From a virus (taxonomy: Duplodnaviria; Heunggongvirae; Uroviricota; Caudoviricetes), in the IMG/VR virus record IMGVR_UViG_2850761752_000006: a stretch of DNA of 22,991 nt, one strand, 5' to 3'. How positions within the stretch are numbered: position 1 is the first letter of the stretch; each line of letters begins with the position of its first letter. The translations under genes and the position numbers were made by a program. Below the pieces are notes generated by a model that was not told the origin of the DNA, searched no databases, and saw only the letters and a program-made list of their open reading frames with translations. This document shows, piece after piece, positions 11,786 to 17,132 of the stretch.

Positions 11786-12061
11786 GTGGCTTCCATTTCC
11801 ATCAGATGTCCTTCCTGCTCCGCTACTGAAGGCGTGGTGCGTAACGGCAAAAGCACTGCCGGACATCAGCGCTATCTCTGCTCTCATTGCCGTAAAACAT
11901 GGCAACTACAGTTCACTTACACCGCCTCTCAGCCCGGTACGCACCAGAAAATCATTGATATGGCCATGAATGGCGTCGGATGTCGCGCCAGTGCACGCAT
12001 TATGGGCGTTGGCCTCAACACGGTTTTACGTCACTTAAAAAACTCAGGCCGCAGTCGGTAA
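11786..12061 (+). CDS. insA: IS1 InsA
   Basis: 91-aa [46 protein letters not shown]... with zinc finger plus HTH. Confidence 0.95.
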
Positions 12062-12483
12062 CCTCGCGCATACAACCGGGCAGTGATGTGATTGTCTGCG
12101 CTGAAATGGACGAACAGTGGGGCTACGTCGGTGCTAAATCACGTCAGCGCTGGCTGTTTTACGCGTATGACAGGATACGGAGGACGGTTGTGGCGCACGT
12201 CTTCGGTGAACGCACTCTGGCCACACTGGAGCGTCTTCTGAGCCTGCTGTCGGCCTTTGAGGTCGTGGTATGGATGACGGATGGCTGGCCGCTGTATGAA
12301 TCACGCCTGAAGGGAAAGCTGCACGTTATCAGCAAGCGTTACACTCAGCGCATTGAGCGACATAATCTGAATCTGAGACAACATCTGGCAAGGCTGGGAC
12401 GGAAGTCACTGTCGTTCTCAAAATCGGTGGAGCTGCATGACAAGGTCATCGGGCATTATCTGAACATAAAACACTATCAGTAA
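11980..12483 (+). CDS. insB: IS1 InsB reading frame (expressed as InsAB' by -1 frameshift)
   Basis: 167-aa ORF overlapping insA in the -1 frame, standard IS1 layout. Confidence 0.9.
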
Positions 12484-12578
12484 GTTGGAGTCATTACCTC
12501 AGGCGGCCTCCTGATGTTCTGAGGGTGCAGAAATCCCTCCGGTTAAGGATTAAATTTTATTTGCTGTGCTAAATTTAA

Positions 12579-13034
12579 TTATTCAGTTTTTATTCCTGCT
12601 CTCAAAACAGCCTCTGCCATTCTGATATCCGGATTTTCTGAAATCATCTTTTCCGGCGAGTCGCAATCACCACCACATTCAGTTATGCGTTCATGACCAA
12701 AACGAATTGTGGTTTTGTGCGCATTAATCATTTGTGTAAGCGCATCTGTCAATTCTGCAATGCGTTTGTCTTTAACTTCCAGCTCTTTCAGTAAAGCCAG
12801 TACGTCAGGAGCGCTAACATCAACGACGGTTACGCGCGATTTCAGGTAATGCTCATCCGCAAAAGTTCGACCAGTTTTAAAATATCCATCATCCCCCTCA
12901 CCTGTGCAGGCATACACAATATGCGTTCTGGAAAATATGCGCTGTATCGACATTTCATCGCCACAAACAGGACATTCCGGCACCTGAATTGGTGAATAAC
13001 GTTCACGTAATGCCTGGTAATTAGTCTTGCACAC
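12579..13034 (-). CDS. Hypothetical phage protein with CxxC zinc-ribbon-like motif and coiled-coil segment
   Basis: 151-aa ORF; GTG start at 13034 preceded by AGGAGA; overlaps the upstream DUF4406-like gene by 14 nt. Contains CPVCG...C and CGGDC motifs. Confidence 0.55.
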   Translation of the reverse strand: MCKTNYQALRERYSPIQVPECPVCGDEMSIQRIFSRTHIVYACTGEGDDGYFKTGRTFADEHYLKSRVTVVDVSAPDVLALLKELEVKDKRIAELTDALTQMINAHKTTIRFGHERITECGGDCDSPEKMISENPDIRMAEAVLRAGIKTE

Positions 13035-13326
13035 TGGCTGTCTCCTGAAAAATCACCGCATGCCCCAGTTTCTCCGCCAGCGCCAGTTCTGCCTTAGCGC
13101 CTGCTGACCGCTGCCAGCCTTTCAGCATGTAAATCGCATCCACACAACGAATCATCGCCATGCAGATATCCATGTACTGCGGCTGTGTCAGCCCGTCCGG
13201 AAGTACTGCCGGGTTTAAGACGGTATGCCCTTCCCGTTTCAGTTCCTCTTCCGCATTGTGAAACGCCTCACGGTTGAAATTTTTATACCCGGTCATTGGA
13301 CCGGCGATATAGACTCTCACCCTCAC
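13021..13326 (-). CDS. DUF4406-like protein (nucleoside 2-deoxyribosyltransferase-like fold)
   Basis: 101-aa ORF beginning MRVRVYIAGPMTGYKNFNREAF..., the YIAGPMTG motif typical of this family as recalled; 4-nt overlap with the upstream gene. Confidence 0.6.
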   Translation of the reverse strand: MRVRVYIAGPMTGYKNFNREAFHNAEEELKREGHTVLNPAVLPDGLTQPQYMDICMAMIRCVDAIYMLKGWQRSAGAKAELALAEKLGHAVIFQETASVQD

Positions 13327-13745
13327 GCCATCACCTCCTGAAAATTACCCTGATAAAACGACAATATGCGCTGCATAACTTCGCTCTTCCGGCACTCGCG
13401 ACAGATTATGTTTAGGCGACTGTCGTAGCGACGTATTTCTCCGTCAGGTAATGACCAGATAAGGTCCGGATCAACCGCAGATGGTTTCTTCAGCTTTGCC
13501 CTTGAGAGCTTTTTACGGGCATTTTGCCAGTCCTTACGCGCCTGTTCAGACGGGAATAACCCGTAACCAGAGTTGTATACATCGCCACTGGCAACCAGCT
13601 CTCTGGCCAGAACGCTCATCAGATATCTTGTTGCCCCAGTTTTAGCTTCCAGTTGTCGTAACGTCTCGCGCCCACTCTGGCGTACGAGTTCAAGAACCTG
13701 CCCTTTAATTTTTTCCCGCTCTTCTTGTGTAAAAACTTTTGCCAC
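13323..13745 (-). CDS. Hypothetical phage early protein (140 aa)
   Basis: ORF immediately downstream of the replication initiator gene; 4-nt overlap with DUF4406-like gene; has a CRECRK motif. Family not recognised. Confidence 0.5.
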   Translation of the reverse strand: MAKVFTQEEREKIKGQVLELVRQSGRETLRQLEAKTGATRYLMSVLARELVASGDVYNSGYGLFPSEQARKDWQNARKKLSRAKLKKPSAVDPDLIWSLPDGEIRRYDSRLNIICRECRKSEVMQRILSFYQGNFQEVMA

Positions 13746-13785
13746 AAGCCCTCCTGAAAATTACCTCATGACCAGAAATTAACAC

Positions 13786-14862
13786 TTACCCCCTGAAGCC
13801 CGGCGGAATTTCGTTATCCGGTTCAGAAATATGATTCACACAACGCTGGTTGTTCGTGCCGCTTACCGGGAGCAACCAGGGGTTCTCAAAATTCCGGTCC
13901 GGTCCAAAAAACGTCGTCGCTCGCTGAACAAATTCCGTTCCCGTTTTCCCGGTAGCCGCCAGGTATCTTGCGTAACGCCTCACGCCATCCAGCATGGCCT
14001 CTGGTGGCACCCCCTCGCGTAATCTGGCCTTCCAGGCACTGAAAGCGGATTTCTTCGGGTTTGCCCCGGCACGCAACGGGTACTCCCGCCAGACCTGTTC
14101 GAACACATCCGGATAATCCACTCGTCCCACAGACTGCCCGGTGTTTTCCGGGACTACCCGATCGGCTTCCCGCTGAATGGCGGAATCGGCTTCAGGCTGC
14201 TGCAGTTGGTGTGATTGCTCCGGACTTGCGGTCATCGCCTGCTGCACAGCGCCCGAATCGGCTTTCAGCGCATACGCTGAATCGGCTTCCGGTGTCGTGC
14301 CTGCTGGCTGACCAGGATTGACGGTCTGAACATCCCCTGCCTGGTTCGTGGCGTTTTTTACGCCATGGACCATAGTGTTTTGATCTTCTTGATCTGTATC
14401 TTTATCTGTATCTTTATCTGTCGTGACTCGTCGTGACATGTGCGTGACATATCGTGACGCGCCGTGACAATCGCCATTTTGTTCCCGCTTTCTTTCCCTC
14501 TCTCGCTGCGCCCTCTTGCGCTCTGCAGGAGATTTTGCGGTTTGCGAAATATTGCCGTTGTCCTCTTTCAGCACCTGGCGTTTTTCCCATCCAGTGATTA
14601 AATCACCATCAAGTACCCGCCCCTGCATCGTCTGCAAAATTGAATCAATTACCTCTTCTGTCACGTCGAGCGCACTTGCCAAATCTTCTGTCGTGACATC
14701 AATGTGACCTCGCGTGACATTTCGTGACGCGCTCACCAGGAGGTGGATATACACTGCCATCACTGTTGCAATTGGCTGCCCTGACACCCTGGCAATTGTT
14801 CGCCACTTAGGGTCATTTGGCATGTCATGCCATAATCTGAGCCAGGCGTTAGCCATACTCAC
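13786..14862 (-). CDS. Phage replication initiator (lambda O-like / YdaU-like) with iterons inside its coding sequence
   Basis: 358-aa ORF with N-terminus MSMANAWLRLWHDMPNDPKWRTIARVSG... resembling a phage replication initiator; contains two clusters of 10-bp-phased CGTGAC repeats; follows the cro-like and YdaT-like genes. Confidence 0.6.
   Translation of the reverse strand: MSMANAWLRLWHDMPNDPKWRTIARVSGQPIATVMAVYIHLLVSASRNVTRGHIDVTTEDLASALDVTEEVIDSILQTMQGRVLDGDLITGWEKRQVLKEDNGNISQTAKSPAERKRAQRERERKREQNGDCHGASRYVTHMSRRVTTDKDTDKDTDQEDQNTMVHGVKNATNQAGDVQTVNPGQPAGTTPEADSAYALKADSGAVQQAMTASPEQSHQLQQPEADSAIQREADRVVPENTGQSVGRVDYPDVFEQVWREYPLRAGANPKKSAFSAWKARLREGVPPEAMLDGVRRYARYLAATGKTGTEFVQRATTFFGPDRNFENPWLLPVSGTNNQRCVNHISEPDNEIPPGFRG
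14422..14468. repeat. Iteron cluster 1: five CGTGAC repeats at 10-11 bp phasing, preceded by a 12-bp tandem repeat
   Basis: CGTGAC at 14422, 14432, 14443, 14453 and 14463; tctgtatcttta at 14393-14404 and 14405-14416. Confidence 0.75.
14692..14728. repeat. Iteron cluster 2: CGTGAC/TGTGAC repeats at 10-11 bp phasing plus one inverted copy
   Basis: cgtgac at 14692, tgtgac at 14703, cgtgac at 14713 and 14723; inverted gtcacg at 14660-14665. Confidence 0.7.
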
Positions 14863-14927
14863 CTCTTTTGATACCGAATCTTTTTACTCACAAATTGCCG
14901 GAAGTGATCCGGTATGAATATTGCGAG

Positions 14928-15353
14928 TCAATGCACAGCCACAATATTTCCTGCAGGGCCACCACGATTCATCTGGTTGAAACCAGCGATCGCCACTGCG
15001 ACAAAATCATCAGCGTCTCTCACCAGTCGTTCCCGCGTCTCCACTAGTTCCCGAAAATAGGCTGAGCTATGGCTGCGCATTCGGGCCACCAGCAGAGGTG
15101 GCATTGCTTTTTCGATAGCTGGTAACAACGCCTGAATTTTTTTAAGCGCATCAGGGGTGTCTTTCTCCACCCAGCGGAAAATTTTCTGAGTATTGCGAGC
15201 CAGGGCTTCCGGATGGCTGTCGTCATACAGTTCCGGGAACGTCATTCCCAGCTCGAAATACGCTTTGGTAATTTTCGCAGCCGGTACTTTTTCGCCGTCC
15301 GGATGCGCCCAGGCATTCATCGCCATGCGGATGTGTTCATGCTTGATTTTCAT
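14928..15353 (-). CDS. YdaT-like protein (Rac-type regulator, CII-position gene)
   Basis: 141-aa ORF beginning MKIKHEHI..., the start I recall for the YdaT family; directly downstream of and overlapping (ATGA) the cro-like gene. Confidence 0.6.
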   Translation of the reverse strand: MKIKHEHIRMAMNAWAHPDGEKVPAAKITKAYFELGMTFPELYDDSHPEALARNTQKIFRWVEKDTPDALKKIQALLPAIEKAMPPLLVARMRSHSSAYFRELVETRERLVRDADDFVAVAIAGFNQMNRGGPAGNIVAVH

Positions 15354-15604
15354 GAATCAACTCCCATCAGCTTTTTCGTAGTAGTTTTATTCCTGCCAAT
15401 AGTTAAAATTGCATCGGCAGAAAATAATCCGTTTGATGCAAGAGCGATTTTTTCAGCGTAATTTGTTTCGCCGGTATATTCTGTGCGAGGCAATTTTCCG
15501 TTATCCATCCATTTATAGATTGCTCTTTGGCTGACACCACAAACGTCGGCCACAACAGCAACGCGAACAGTTTTGATTACATCTTCAAGTGTTTTCTGGT
15601 TCAT
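15350..15604 (-). CDS. Cro/YdaS-like HTH regulator (start at MNQKTLED; longer ORF to 15676 possible)
   Basis: HTH segment VADVCGVSQRAIYKWMDNGKLP; divergent from the repressor gene. The longer start would consume the operator region. Confidence 0.6.
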   Translation of the reverse strand: MNQKTLEDVIKTVRVAVVADVCGVSQRAIYKWMDNGKLPRTEYTGETNYAEKIALASNGLFSADAILTIGRNKTTTKKLMGVDS

Positions 15605-15683
15605 ATCACCCTCACAATGTGAACTTTGAGTACATGCTATAACAGAACTGACAGTACATTCAAGAGCGAATATCATTGAACTT
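15605..15683. promoter_or_regulatory. Divergent promoter/operator region between cro-like and repressor genes
   Basis: 79-bp intergenic region containing AGTACATG (15629-15636) and AGTACATT (15653-15660). Confidence 0.55.
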
Positions 15684-16103
15684 ATGGTTCATGAAGATAA
15701 AGCGCGTAAAGAGTTCGCCAGTAGGCTTGCGCTAGCCTGTGAAAACGCTGGTTATGAACAACATGGAAGGCAGGCAGAAATTGCCCGTCGAATGAAATTA
15801 ACACCAAAAGCGGTTAGCAAATGGTTTAATGGCGAAACAATTCCTCGCCGGGAGAAATTAAGGGAATTAGCAACACTAATAGGAACAACACCAACCTATC
15901 TTTTGGGAGAGGATACAGAAGAAAGTGGACAGGTACGTTTCTATCAGGAGTTAAATCCAAGACAAAAAATCATCATTGACCTTCTGGACGAGCTCCCTGA
16001 CAGTGAGACAGATGAACTTTTAAAAACTCTTGAAGAGAAAAAACAGAAGTACAATGCAATTTACGAAGAGTTAGCACGAAAGAAAAAACAAAAAGCCTCT
16101 TAA
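15684..16103 (+). CDS. DicA/RacR-like XRE-family prophage repressor
   Basis: 139-aa ORF with N-terminal HTH (GRQAEIARRMKLTPKAVSKWFNGETIP) and C-terminal region ...IIIDLLDELPDSETDELLKTLEE... like the DicA C-terminus as recalled. Confidence 0.75.
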   Translation: MVHEDKARKEFASRLALACENAGYEQHGRQAEIARRMKLTPKAVSKWFNGETIPRREKLRELATLIGTTPTYLLGEDTEESGQVRFYQELNPRQKIIIDLLDELPDSETDELLKTLEEKKQKYNAIYEELARKKKQKAS

Positions 16104-16434
16104 ACCAGCATAAATCCGGTAGCGCCTTCCTCCGGGTTTGTGCTTCACTTTATCCCATCTCATTTTTTTACACACAAAATGTACCATAAGCACTTTACAA
16201 CAATGAACGCAAAGTACATTATATACCTGCCACCCACCCCGCCCCACAGAATGCAGGGCAATACTTCGAGTTACCAGGCAGTGGTCAGGGGTTAAGTAGC
16301 CAGCCCGAGGCGTAAGAACATGACGGCAGGGTTCAACTTTAATAACTATGCAGCAGGTTTTTGTTCCGCTACCCCGGCGTTAAGGGGAAATGAGGTCAGC
16401 ATGGATACTATCGATCTTGGGTAATGACTCCAAC

Positions 16435-16938
16435 TTACTGATAGTGTTTTATGTTCAGATAATGCCCGATGACCTTGTCATGCAGCTCCACCGATTTTGA
16501 GAACGACAGTGACTTCCGTCCCAGCCTTGCCAGATGTTGTCTCAGATTCAGATTATGTCGCTCAATGCGCTGAGTGTAACGCTTGCTGATAACGTGCAGC
16601 TTTCCCTTCAGGCGTGATTCATACAGCGGCCAGCCATCCGTCATCCATACCACGACCTCAAAGGCCGACAGCAGGCTCAGAAGACGCTCCAGTGTGGCCA
16701 GAGTGCGTTCACCGAAGACGTGCGCCACAACCGTCCTCCGTATCCTGTCATACGCGTAAAACAGCCAGCGCTGACGTGATTTAGCACCGACGTAGCCCCA
16801 CTGTTCGTCCATTTCAGCGCAGACAATCACATCACTGCCCGGTTGTATGCGCGAGGTTACCGACTGCGGCCTGAGTTTTTTAAGTGACGTAAAACCGTGT
16901 TGAGGCCAACGCCCATAATGCGTGCACTGGCGCGACAT
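16435..16938 (-). CDS. insB: IS1 InsB reading frame
   Basis: Identical 167-aa translation to copy 1. Confidence 0.9.
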
Positions 16939-17132
16939 CCGACGCCATTCATGGCCATATCAATGATTTTCTGGTGCGTACCGGGCTGAGAGGCGGTGTA
17001 AGTGAACTGTAGTTGCCATGTTTTACGGCAATGAGAGCAGAGATAGCGCTGATGTCCGGCAGTGCTTTTGCCGTTACGCACCACGCCTTCAGTAGCGGAG
17101 CAGGAAGGACATCTGATGGAAATGGAAGCCAC
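16857..17132 (-). CDS. insA: IS1 InsA
   Basis: Identical 91-aa translation to copy 1. Confidence 0.95.

Follow-up and report, generated by a model that had tools for sequence, protein, structure and literature searches.

The DNA considered here is a stretch of 22,991 nucleotides from a caudoviricete (IMG/VR record IMGVR_UViG_2850761752_000006), which was analysed over its full length and is called the window below. Its minus strand carries the gene of a phage replication initiator, and inside this gene lie two clusters of a short direct repeat and an AT-rich tract which together make up a candidate replication origin (Table 1). An earlier note on this DNA, made without database searches, had counted nine direct and one inverted copy of YGTGAC in two clusters, and a motif scan of the window gives the same result. 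On the plus strand, the copies of the distal array start at 14422, 14432, 14443, 14453 and 14463 (steps of 10, 11, 10 and 10) and those of the proximal array at 14692, 14703 (TGTGAC), 14713 and 14723 (steps of 11, 10 and 10); one copy (n = 1) lies on the opposite strand. The iteron unit is a conserved core of 6-7 bp in direct orientation, present once every 10-11 bp in both clusters. Ten of the 25 YGTGAC matches of the 23-kb window fall inside 307 bp and the other 15 are scattered across ~22.7 kb, from which ~0.2 would be expected per 307 bp; Poisson arithmetic on these motif counts gives P(>=10 YGTGAC) ~2e-14 for one 307-bp span. Since the motif is not enriched over the window as a whole (25 copies vs 21.6 expected), the signal consists of the clustering and the phasing. 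Repeat finders recovered the arrays independently, as two 39-nt arrays that are 72% alike (D1) and as a tandem repeat of period 10/11. The 12-bp tandem repeat that the earlier note had read as encoding a DKDTDKDTD linker is also present (TCTTTATCTGTA, three copies at 14387-14422), the minus strand reading TDKDTDKDTD. In the complete genome of phage Tritos there are only two GTCACR arrays, and both are inside the orthologous gene.

Table 1 Features of the initiator gene and of its surroundings in the window
Feature	Position	Strand	Remarks
Replication initiator gene	13786-14862	-	358 residues, GTG start; contains both arrays
Proximal iteron array	14692-14728	-	Four coding-strand GTCACR at gene nt 134, 144, 154 and 165
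Inter-array spacer, 223 bp	14469-14691	-	Encodes helix 2, helix 3, wing and basic helix
Single inverted iteron	14660-14665	+	GTCACG on the plus strand; coding strand GAC GTG ACx, D66-V67-T68
Distal iteron array	14422-14468	-	Five coding-strand GTCACG at gene nt 394, 404, 414, 425 and 435
AT-rich tract including the 12-bp tandem repeat	14376-14421	-	Coding strand (ACAGATAAAGAT)n...GATCAAGAAGATCAAAAC, encodes TDKDTDKDTDQEDQN
Inverted repeat	14342-14372		13-nt arms, 5-nt loop; directly past the AT-rich tract
C-terminal tail	13789-13845	-	RCVNHISEPDNEIPPGFRG; last 19 residues, shared with Rac YdaU
cI-like repressor gene	15684-16103		Divergent to the minus-strand genes
cro-like helix-turn-helix gene	15350-15676	-	Early gene order
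YdaT/CII-like gene	14928-15353	-	Immediately before the initiator gene
DUF977/Ren-like gene	13323-13745	-	Next gene after the initiator

The gene is identified as a replication initiator by its PHROG assignment, its winged-helix fold and its place after cro-like and cII/YdaT-like genes. PHROG 3729 ('replication initiation protein') aligns with nearly the whole protein (E = 2.2e-255, residues 3-358 on positions 1-356 of the 356 in the profile), and as a whole the protein has no Pfam family at E <= 0.01. At E <= 10, the N-terminal domain (N-domain) matches only Phage_rep_org_N and HTH_Crp_2 in Pfam, Phage_rep_O not being among the matches. The alignment with Phage_rep_org_N (PF09681) places residues 7-125 on positions 1-119 of the 121 in the model, with 16.5 bits (E = 0.0086) for a cut-off of 23.3, and the related score of TIGR01714 is 15.4 bits for a cut-off of 49.8. 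No Rep_3-type domain (the WH1-WH2 domain of iteron plasmids) was detected in the Pfam searches, and a profile search of PDB sequences returned marginal DnaT hits only, to variable C-terminal parts. The predicted N-domain superposes on solved winged-helix domains, the closest with a low root-mean-square deviation being the N-terminal domain of DnaD, and in the structure model it is a DnaD-like winged helix. Past the N-domain, the protein continues with a basic helix and an acidic DKD/DTD linker, which are followed by the C-terminal domain and a tail ending in EPDNEIPPGFRG.

No helicase loader or helicase gene was found after the initiator in the window, its downstream neighbour being the DUF977/Ren-like gene, beyond which the minus strand carries a DUF4406 gene and then an Ead/Ea22-like gene. 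Phage Tritos has the same layout; no loader or helicase is annotated anywhere in its genome, and the orthologue of the initiator is its sole annotated replication gene. Concerning other signals, the spacer between the arrays has a G+C content of 42-62% and no pronounced AT-rich tract, and its coding strand is all purine at 14480-14519 (plus-strand AT skew of -1.0). An Rfam search of 12400-16500 found nothing, and a promoter and terminator scan gave sites no more numerous than in shuffled sequence; a 'promoter' call at 14444-14471 was rejected because it is simply two iterons. DnaA boxes show no enrichment over the window and there are none inside the origin region, the nearest being a one-mismatch site at 14884-14892.

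Conservation of the iterons among homologous initiators

The evolution of the repeats was studied in homologues from Pseudomonas and Aeromonas phages and from a scan of bacterial genomes limited to one genome per species. A scan of viral contigs with a single N-domain gave only loci that are ~99% identical and useless for tests of divergence; a second one, seeded with distant subfamilies, added 80 diverse viral contigs. The initiator gene is found in 2,699 of 5,426 complete Escherichia coli genomes, where it is annotated as 'hypothetical protein' among the best matches listed, and among sequenced phages it occurs in Tritos and Evi, for instance. The best species-level match is Shigella flexneri (L084, 98%), and the window may therefore stem from Shigella. 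The relatives of the initiator, which NCBI names 'phage replisome organizer', span Gamma-, Beta- and Alphaproteobacteria and their phages. The plasmid collection provided 11 records, including two 50.9-kb circular episomes of Pseudomonas aeruginosa which are phage genomes and lend at best weak support to autonomous replication.

Homologous loci with 33-69% G+C contain GTCACR three to four times between about +130 and +165 and three to five times between about +390 and +435, again spaced by 10-11 bp. The inverted copy is kept in most genes of the GTCACR class (at about +179 to +218, near +197) and is absent from the CGAACGC class. Pseudomonas phages share with the window only the DNA that codes for the N-domain, both arrays included, whereas their flanking genes and C-terminal domains differ, which indicates that the sites travel with the N-domain and not with the neighbouring genes or the host.

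The nine direct hexamers of the window use frames 0, 1 and 2: four of them encode V-T, three S-R and two G-H or C-H. The codons that overlap them were compared with the other conserved codons in a codon alignment of 24 genes, from hosts with 33-69% G+C. The mean entropy is 0.20 bits at the 14 iteron codons, whereas the 51 other conserved codons have 1.51 bits (Mann-Whitney p = 5e-8), and for codons that are four- or six-fold degenerate it is 0.23 vs 1.89 bits, with zero overlap between both groups. In the proximal array, the codons kept are GCG (22/24), TCA (23/24), GTC (24/24), ACG (24/24), GGT (24/24) and CAC (23/23), followed by a second GTC (24/24) and a second ACG (23/24); in the distal one they are CAC (21/21), TCA (24/24), GTC (24/24) and ACG or ACA. 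The V67 codon of the inverted copy is GTG in 21 of 21 homologues. The other invariant residues of the N-domain use four to six codons each. As both sorts of codons were compared within the same genes, shared ancestry does not explain the difference, and the codon usage shows that the hexamers are preserved as DNA independently of the protein code.

The motif itself changes from one lineage to another, and it does so at both array positions. GTAACG replaces GTCACG in L104, L107, L114 and L118, GTGACG in L124 and CGAACGC in L111, L113, L115-L117, L121-L123 and L126, all variants having an ACG core in common. A motif-free test was also carried out, in which the 6-mer most often repeated in the distal zone, at a spacing of one or two turns, had to recur at least twice in a proximal zone of 200 nt. 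This recurrence is found in 54 of 62 non-redundant genes vs 1 of 804 control zones from the same loci, so that two arrays with one shared, lineage-specific motif can be taken as the hallmark of the family. The presence of two clusters, which the earlier note had called less usual, is thus the norm here. The alignment revealed no clean determinant of the iteron class among the residues outside the iteron-encoded segments, and L108, for example, combines GTCACG iterons with a protein background that is GTAACG-like. Two loci, L120 and L125, lack both standard arrays and have instead, after the N-domain (gene nt ~307-375), TACGTAG/ACTACG repeats that may be a different type of site or have a different function.

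Since arrays and codons overlap, the DNA sites dictate the peptide segments encoded there, a surface loop of the DNA-binding domain and the linker. The proximal array encodes A45-S-R-N-V-T-R-G-H-I-D-V-T57, a segment that in the structure model closes helix 1 and forms the loop between helices 1 and 2. The distal one encodes C132-H-G-A-S-R-Y-V-T-H-M-S-R-R-V-T147 in the inter-domain linker, where it forms a conserved island within a sequence that is otherwise variable and modelled with low confidence. Both segments are hypervariable parts of the alignment and grow by the addition of iterons. The distal array of the window has 21 bp (7 codons, 2 iterons) more than most homologues, which have three or four copies, and the loop is expanded by 7 codons in each of L085, L104, L107 and L108 and by 14 in L118, L109 being an exception with 23. 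The segments grow mostly by steps of 21 bp, that is, 7 codons and two helical turns, which keep both the reading frame and the helical phase. The GTAACG and GTGACG variants are barred from the third frame since they would create there a TAA or a TGA stop codon.

The AT-rich tract, the linker junction and the C-terminal tail

The G+C content of the initiator gene reaches its minimum, 27.5% vs 54% for the whole gene, at 14380-14419. The linkers of the homologues are encoded by (GATAAA)n or (GATACA)n, and the Asp and Lys codons of this tract are frozen as GAT and AAA (e.g., 22/22 and 19/20) even in hosts with 60-69% G+C, while GAC and AAG are common in the same genes outside the tract. An automatic criterion places the start of the minimum a few bases at most from the last distal iteron in 31 of 41 genes, and a reading of the same table by eye gives 39 of 41. 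On the basis of these sequence properties, the AT-rich tract is a candidate DNA-unwinding element (DUE). It also contains two GATC (Dam) sites, at 14382-14385 and 14391-14394, that are 9 bp apart and are not kept by the homologues. Just past the tract, the best inverted repeat is matched by at most 10% of shuffles in 17 of 45 genes, when ~4.5 would be expected by chance. The inverted repeat of the window is suggestive of an origin-flanking palindrome, a part of the model in which confidence is lower than in the others. Many inverted repeats found at this place in the family have the form CCCCC-N4-GGGGG and encode a P-P-x-x-G peptide.

Right past the DKD linker (~14376-14421), the N-domain continues, in the family, into C-terminal regions of at least four unrelated kinds (L001, L002, L003, L120 and L125). 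These partners are a DnaT-like domain (PF17948), the domain of the window, which is shared with Stx phage 75/02, a P7869 type and the region of L120 and L125, whose YYVY...GIS.NPW motif was taken as putatively GIY-YIG-like. As the C-terminal regions are swapped right after the linker, the candidate origin sits at a junction of module exchange. Stx phage 75/02 (L003) has the window-type C-terminal domain with a different N-terminal domain, and the CGTGAC arrays are absent from it; at 3089-3118 and 3206-3225, this locus has a (TTCCTG)n tract that encodes an EQEQEQ linker and copies of ATCATAAAA/ATGATAAAA that are 11 bp apart.

The C-terminal tail is also present in the protein of Stx phage 75/02 and in many members of the family. 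Of its 19 residues, 13 are the same in the C-terminus of Rac YdaU (BLASTP, E = 8e-6), and it also aligns with the 24 residues at the very end of the E. coli DnaT model NF002770 (E = 7.5e-4). From these similarities, the tail is a candidate for a portable peptide that docks to the host replication machinery, which could explain how the initiator functions without a loader gene.

An origin model and its alternatives

We consider it likely that a bipartite phage replication origin lies inside the gene of its own initiator. The earlier note had already proposed a prophage origin made of initiator-binding iterons at this place, and its proposal is supported, at the level of sequence, by the frozen codons, the co-variation of the arrays and the AT-rich tract. 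The best reading is that the distal array and the AT-rich tract would be the core of this origin and the proximal array an auxiliary element, regarded as such because it is strongly conserved and yet absent from some genes where the distal sites and the AT-rich tract remain. Monomers of the N-terminal winged helix would bind successive hexamers on one face of the DNA, one per helical turn. The complex nucleated on the distal array would then melt the adjacent AT-rich tract, in a step comparable to that of lambda O at ori-lambda and of SPP1 G38P at oriL, and the C-terminal domain and the IPPGFRG tail would recruit the helicase machinery of the host. The proximal array and the inverted copy, ~260 bp upstream of the distal array, may provide an auxiliary platform for initiator binding, which could act together with the distal array by looping or wrapping the DNA, or set the occupancy of the initiator.

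Several observations weigh against this model. In 8 of the 62 genes (e.g., L110, L112 and L119) the proximal array is missing or cannot be recognised, which means that it is not strictly essential and makes its role the weakest part of the model. The distance between the arrays varies from ~220 to ~350 bp across genes, so that a fixed helical phase between them is not claimable; a test of this phase was dropped, as the varying distances and the uncertainty of the helical repeat over 260 bp make it uninformative. The amino acids encoded by the iterons are invariant too and part of the conservation could act on the protein; it is the synonymous-site result only that separates the DNA level from the protein level. 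The match of the N-domain to Phage_rep_org_N is sub-threshold, a Foldseek comparison of the predicted structure with the PDB gave no significant hit, and literature searches for the origin of this initiator family found no description. Finally, the copy studied here is flanked by IS1 insertion sequences and the prophage may be defective. Two inverted IS1 copies with identical InsA/InsB open reading frames, at 11786-12483 (plus strand) and 16435-17132 (minus strand), bracket the immunity and replication module. Tritos has several small open reading frames, DicF, dicB and ydfD between its genes for the cI-like protein and exonuclease VIII (the latter of ~823 residues), and in the window this position is occupied by an IS1 copy and the exonuclease open reading frame is shorter (736 residues, TTG start), which suggests an IS1-associated deletion and possibly a defective prophage.

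Several alternatives may account for part or all of these repeats. One possibility, which we regard as tentative, is that the origin consists of the distal array and the AT-rich tract only and that the proximal array is a control element: the initiator bound there would block early rightward transcription and so regulate itself, or the array would titrate or handcuff it like incA of P1 and incC of F. Iteron plasmids commonly carry a second, regulatory set of iterons; the proximal array has no adjoining AT-rich tract, it has disappeared from some lineages that retain the distal sites and the tract, and, 134 nt into a transcribed gene, it stands in the path of the RNA polymerase. Nevertheless, the sequence offers nothing that separates such a control from an enhancer or looping role, the same orientation, motif and tight co-variation of both arrays being compatible with either of them, and a restraint on copy number is less obviously useful for a lytic burst than for a plasmid.

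It is very unlikely that the arrays serve another protein or process, such as CRP (whose half-site is TGTGA), partition, packaging or a boundary for the exchange of initiator domains. The distal array and the DKD linker are found exactly where unrelated C-terminal domains join the N-domain, and this could be a recombination joint, but such a joint would leave unexplained the proximal array, the one-turn phasing and the frozen AT-rich codons. The hexamer differs by subfamily (GTAACG, CGAACGC) although the hosts overlap, a co-variation not expected from a host factor, and the packaging genes of Tritos lie elsewhere, without an array. Sites for the host CRP were rejected given this co-variation, a single TGTGA among the nine direct copies and the lack of an inverted partner at CRP spacing. 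The probability that the repeats reflect a repeated SR-x-VT peptide motif devoid of function in the DNA appears negligible. Within the GTCACG subfamily the encoded residues are invariant, and both segments contain ASRxVT; yet three reading frames are used, the period of 10-11 nt is not a multiple of three, the synonymous positions of the hexamers are frozen when other invariant residues use four to six codons, and the distal segment lies in a low-confidence and otherwise variable linker. The use of three frames and the frozen synonymous positions thus dispose of the idea, mentioned in the earlier note, that the homologues might reveal mere codon-level repeats of the protein.

A further development of the origin model, which seems unlikely, is that of a self-referential module, as the proximal iteron DNA encodes a loop of the winged-helix domain that would read it. 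One nucleotide change could then alter both the site and a part of its reader that influences specificity or oligomerisation, and the origin and the initiator could switch specificity together (GTCACG, GTAACG, GTGACG, CGAACGC), giving incompatible replicon types among co-resident prophages. In a related version, included in the same assessment, the proximal array could be an intragenic roadblock or handcuffing element, which would bring the origin-plus-control iterons of plasmids within one gene.

If the proposed bipartite origin is true, the replication origin of one of the commonest types of enterobacterial prophages would be pinned to the base, and at least four iteron specificity classes would be readable from sequence and usable for origin annotation and for predicting which replicons are compatible. 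It would also be a clean natural case of a DNA element that dictates protein sequence, as evidenced by the frozen synonymous sites, the stop codons that bar one frame to two motif variants and the expansion mostly by 21 bp. A single-gene module, with an initiator and an internal origin but no loader, would offer tool builders a compact candidate replicon and provide a test case for the recruitment of DnaB by a loader-less initiator. The biology is of an expected kind, yet this very common and unstudied family is an unusually clean case of overlapping constraints on DNA and protein.

Comparison with known replication systems

The closest layout is that of lambda and the Stx phages, in which iterons and an AT-rich tract inside the initiator gene O have been validated as the origin (PMC7466680, PMC3349717). 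In both cases, the known or candidate origin lies in the part of the gene that encodes the linker between the DNA-binding and the C-terminal domains, the iterons are directly followed by an AT-rich tract of ~40 bp, and the number of iterons varies among relatives, from 4 in lambda to 6 in Stx phages (PMC7466680, PMC3349717). In the early rightward operon, the gene likewise has cro and cII ahead of it. The lambda iterons are ~18 bp long, each is bound by an O dimer, and they form a single cluster (PMC3349717). Here, in contrast, the direct repeats are of 6-7 bp at a spacing of 10-11 bp, a second array is found ~260 bp upstream, inside the sequence that codes for the DNA-binding domain, no P-type loader gene lies downstream and the initiator is not an O homologue. 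The lambda-type origin of the earlier note thus holds for the in-gene iterons together with their AT-rich tract, but neither for homology to O, which the Pfam searches did not recover, nor for the 18-bp units, and the likeness is one of analogy only.

The oriL of SPP1 also lies in the gene of its own initiator, gene 38, where direct repeats (AB boxes) bound by G38P are adjacent to a DUE (PMC5737612, PMC6316719). The window shares with it the direct repeats and the candidate DUE embedded in the initiator gene and an initiator without an AAA+ domain; the N-domain aligns over the whole Phage_rep_org_N model, albeit below threshold. The sequence similarity is marginal only, the second set of repeats of SPP1 is a separate oriR located ~13 kb away with its own DUE, and SPP1 has a loader and a helicase (G39P and G40P) whereas the prophage has neither. 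Two separate clusters of one initiator-binding repeat near the initiator gene are also characteristic of iteron plasmids such as P1 (incC/incA) and F (ori2/incC), in which one cluster stands beside the unwinding region and the other is regulatory. Their iterons, unlike those of the window, are ~19-22 bp long, flank the rep gene and are read by Rep proteins of the WH1-WH2 type.

The comparison with ydaU of the Rac prophage that the earlier note had suggested did not reveal homology beyond the 19-residue tail (BLASTP): the N-terminal domain of YdaU, a DUF1376 protein, is unrelated, the initiator lacks a DUF1376 hit, and Rac has a DnaC-like gene, ydaV, downstream of ydaU. Nevertheless, both genes occupy the same place after homologues of ydaS and ydaT, and both proteins have a similar DKD/DTD linker, the TNKDTDKD stretch of YdaU aligning with the DKDTD linker of the window, and a near-identical IPPGFRG tail. 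In E. coli K-12, ydaU contains mid-gene direct repeats (L129, 3972-4063) that are AAGCAGATGTTCAA-like, in 4 copies with spacings of 33, 33 and 12. The sequence of these repeats and of the linker suggests the same in-gene layout of the origin in a different family of initiators.

An origin made of iterons and a DUE inside the initiator gene is already textbook knowledge. What differs here is a family of initiators that is unrelated to lambda O and linked to SPP1 G38P only via a sub-threshold match of the N-domain, together with short sites spaced by one helical turn, a bipartite architecture and specificity classes that are readable from sequence.

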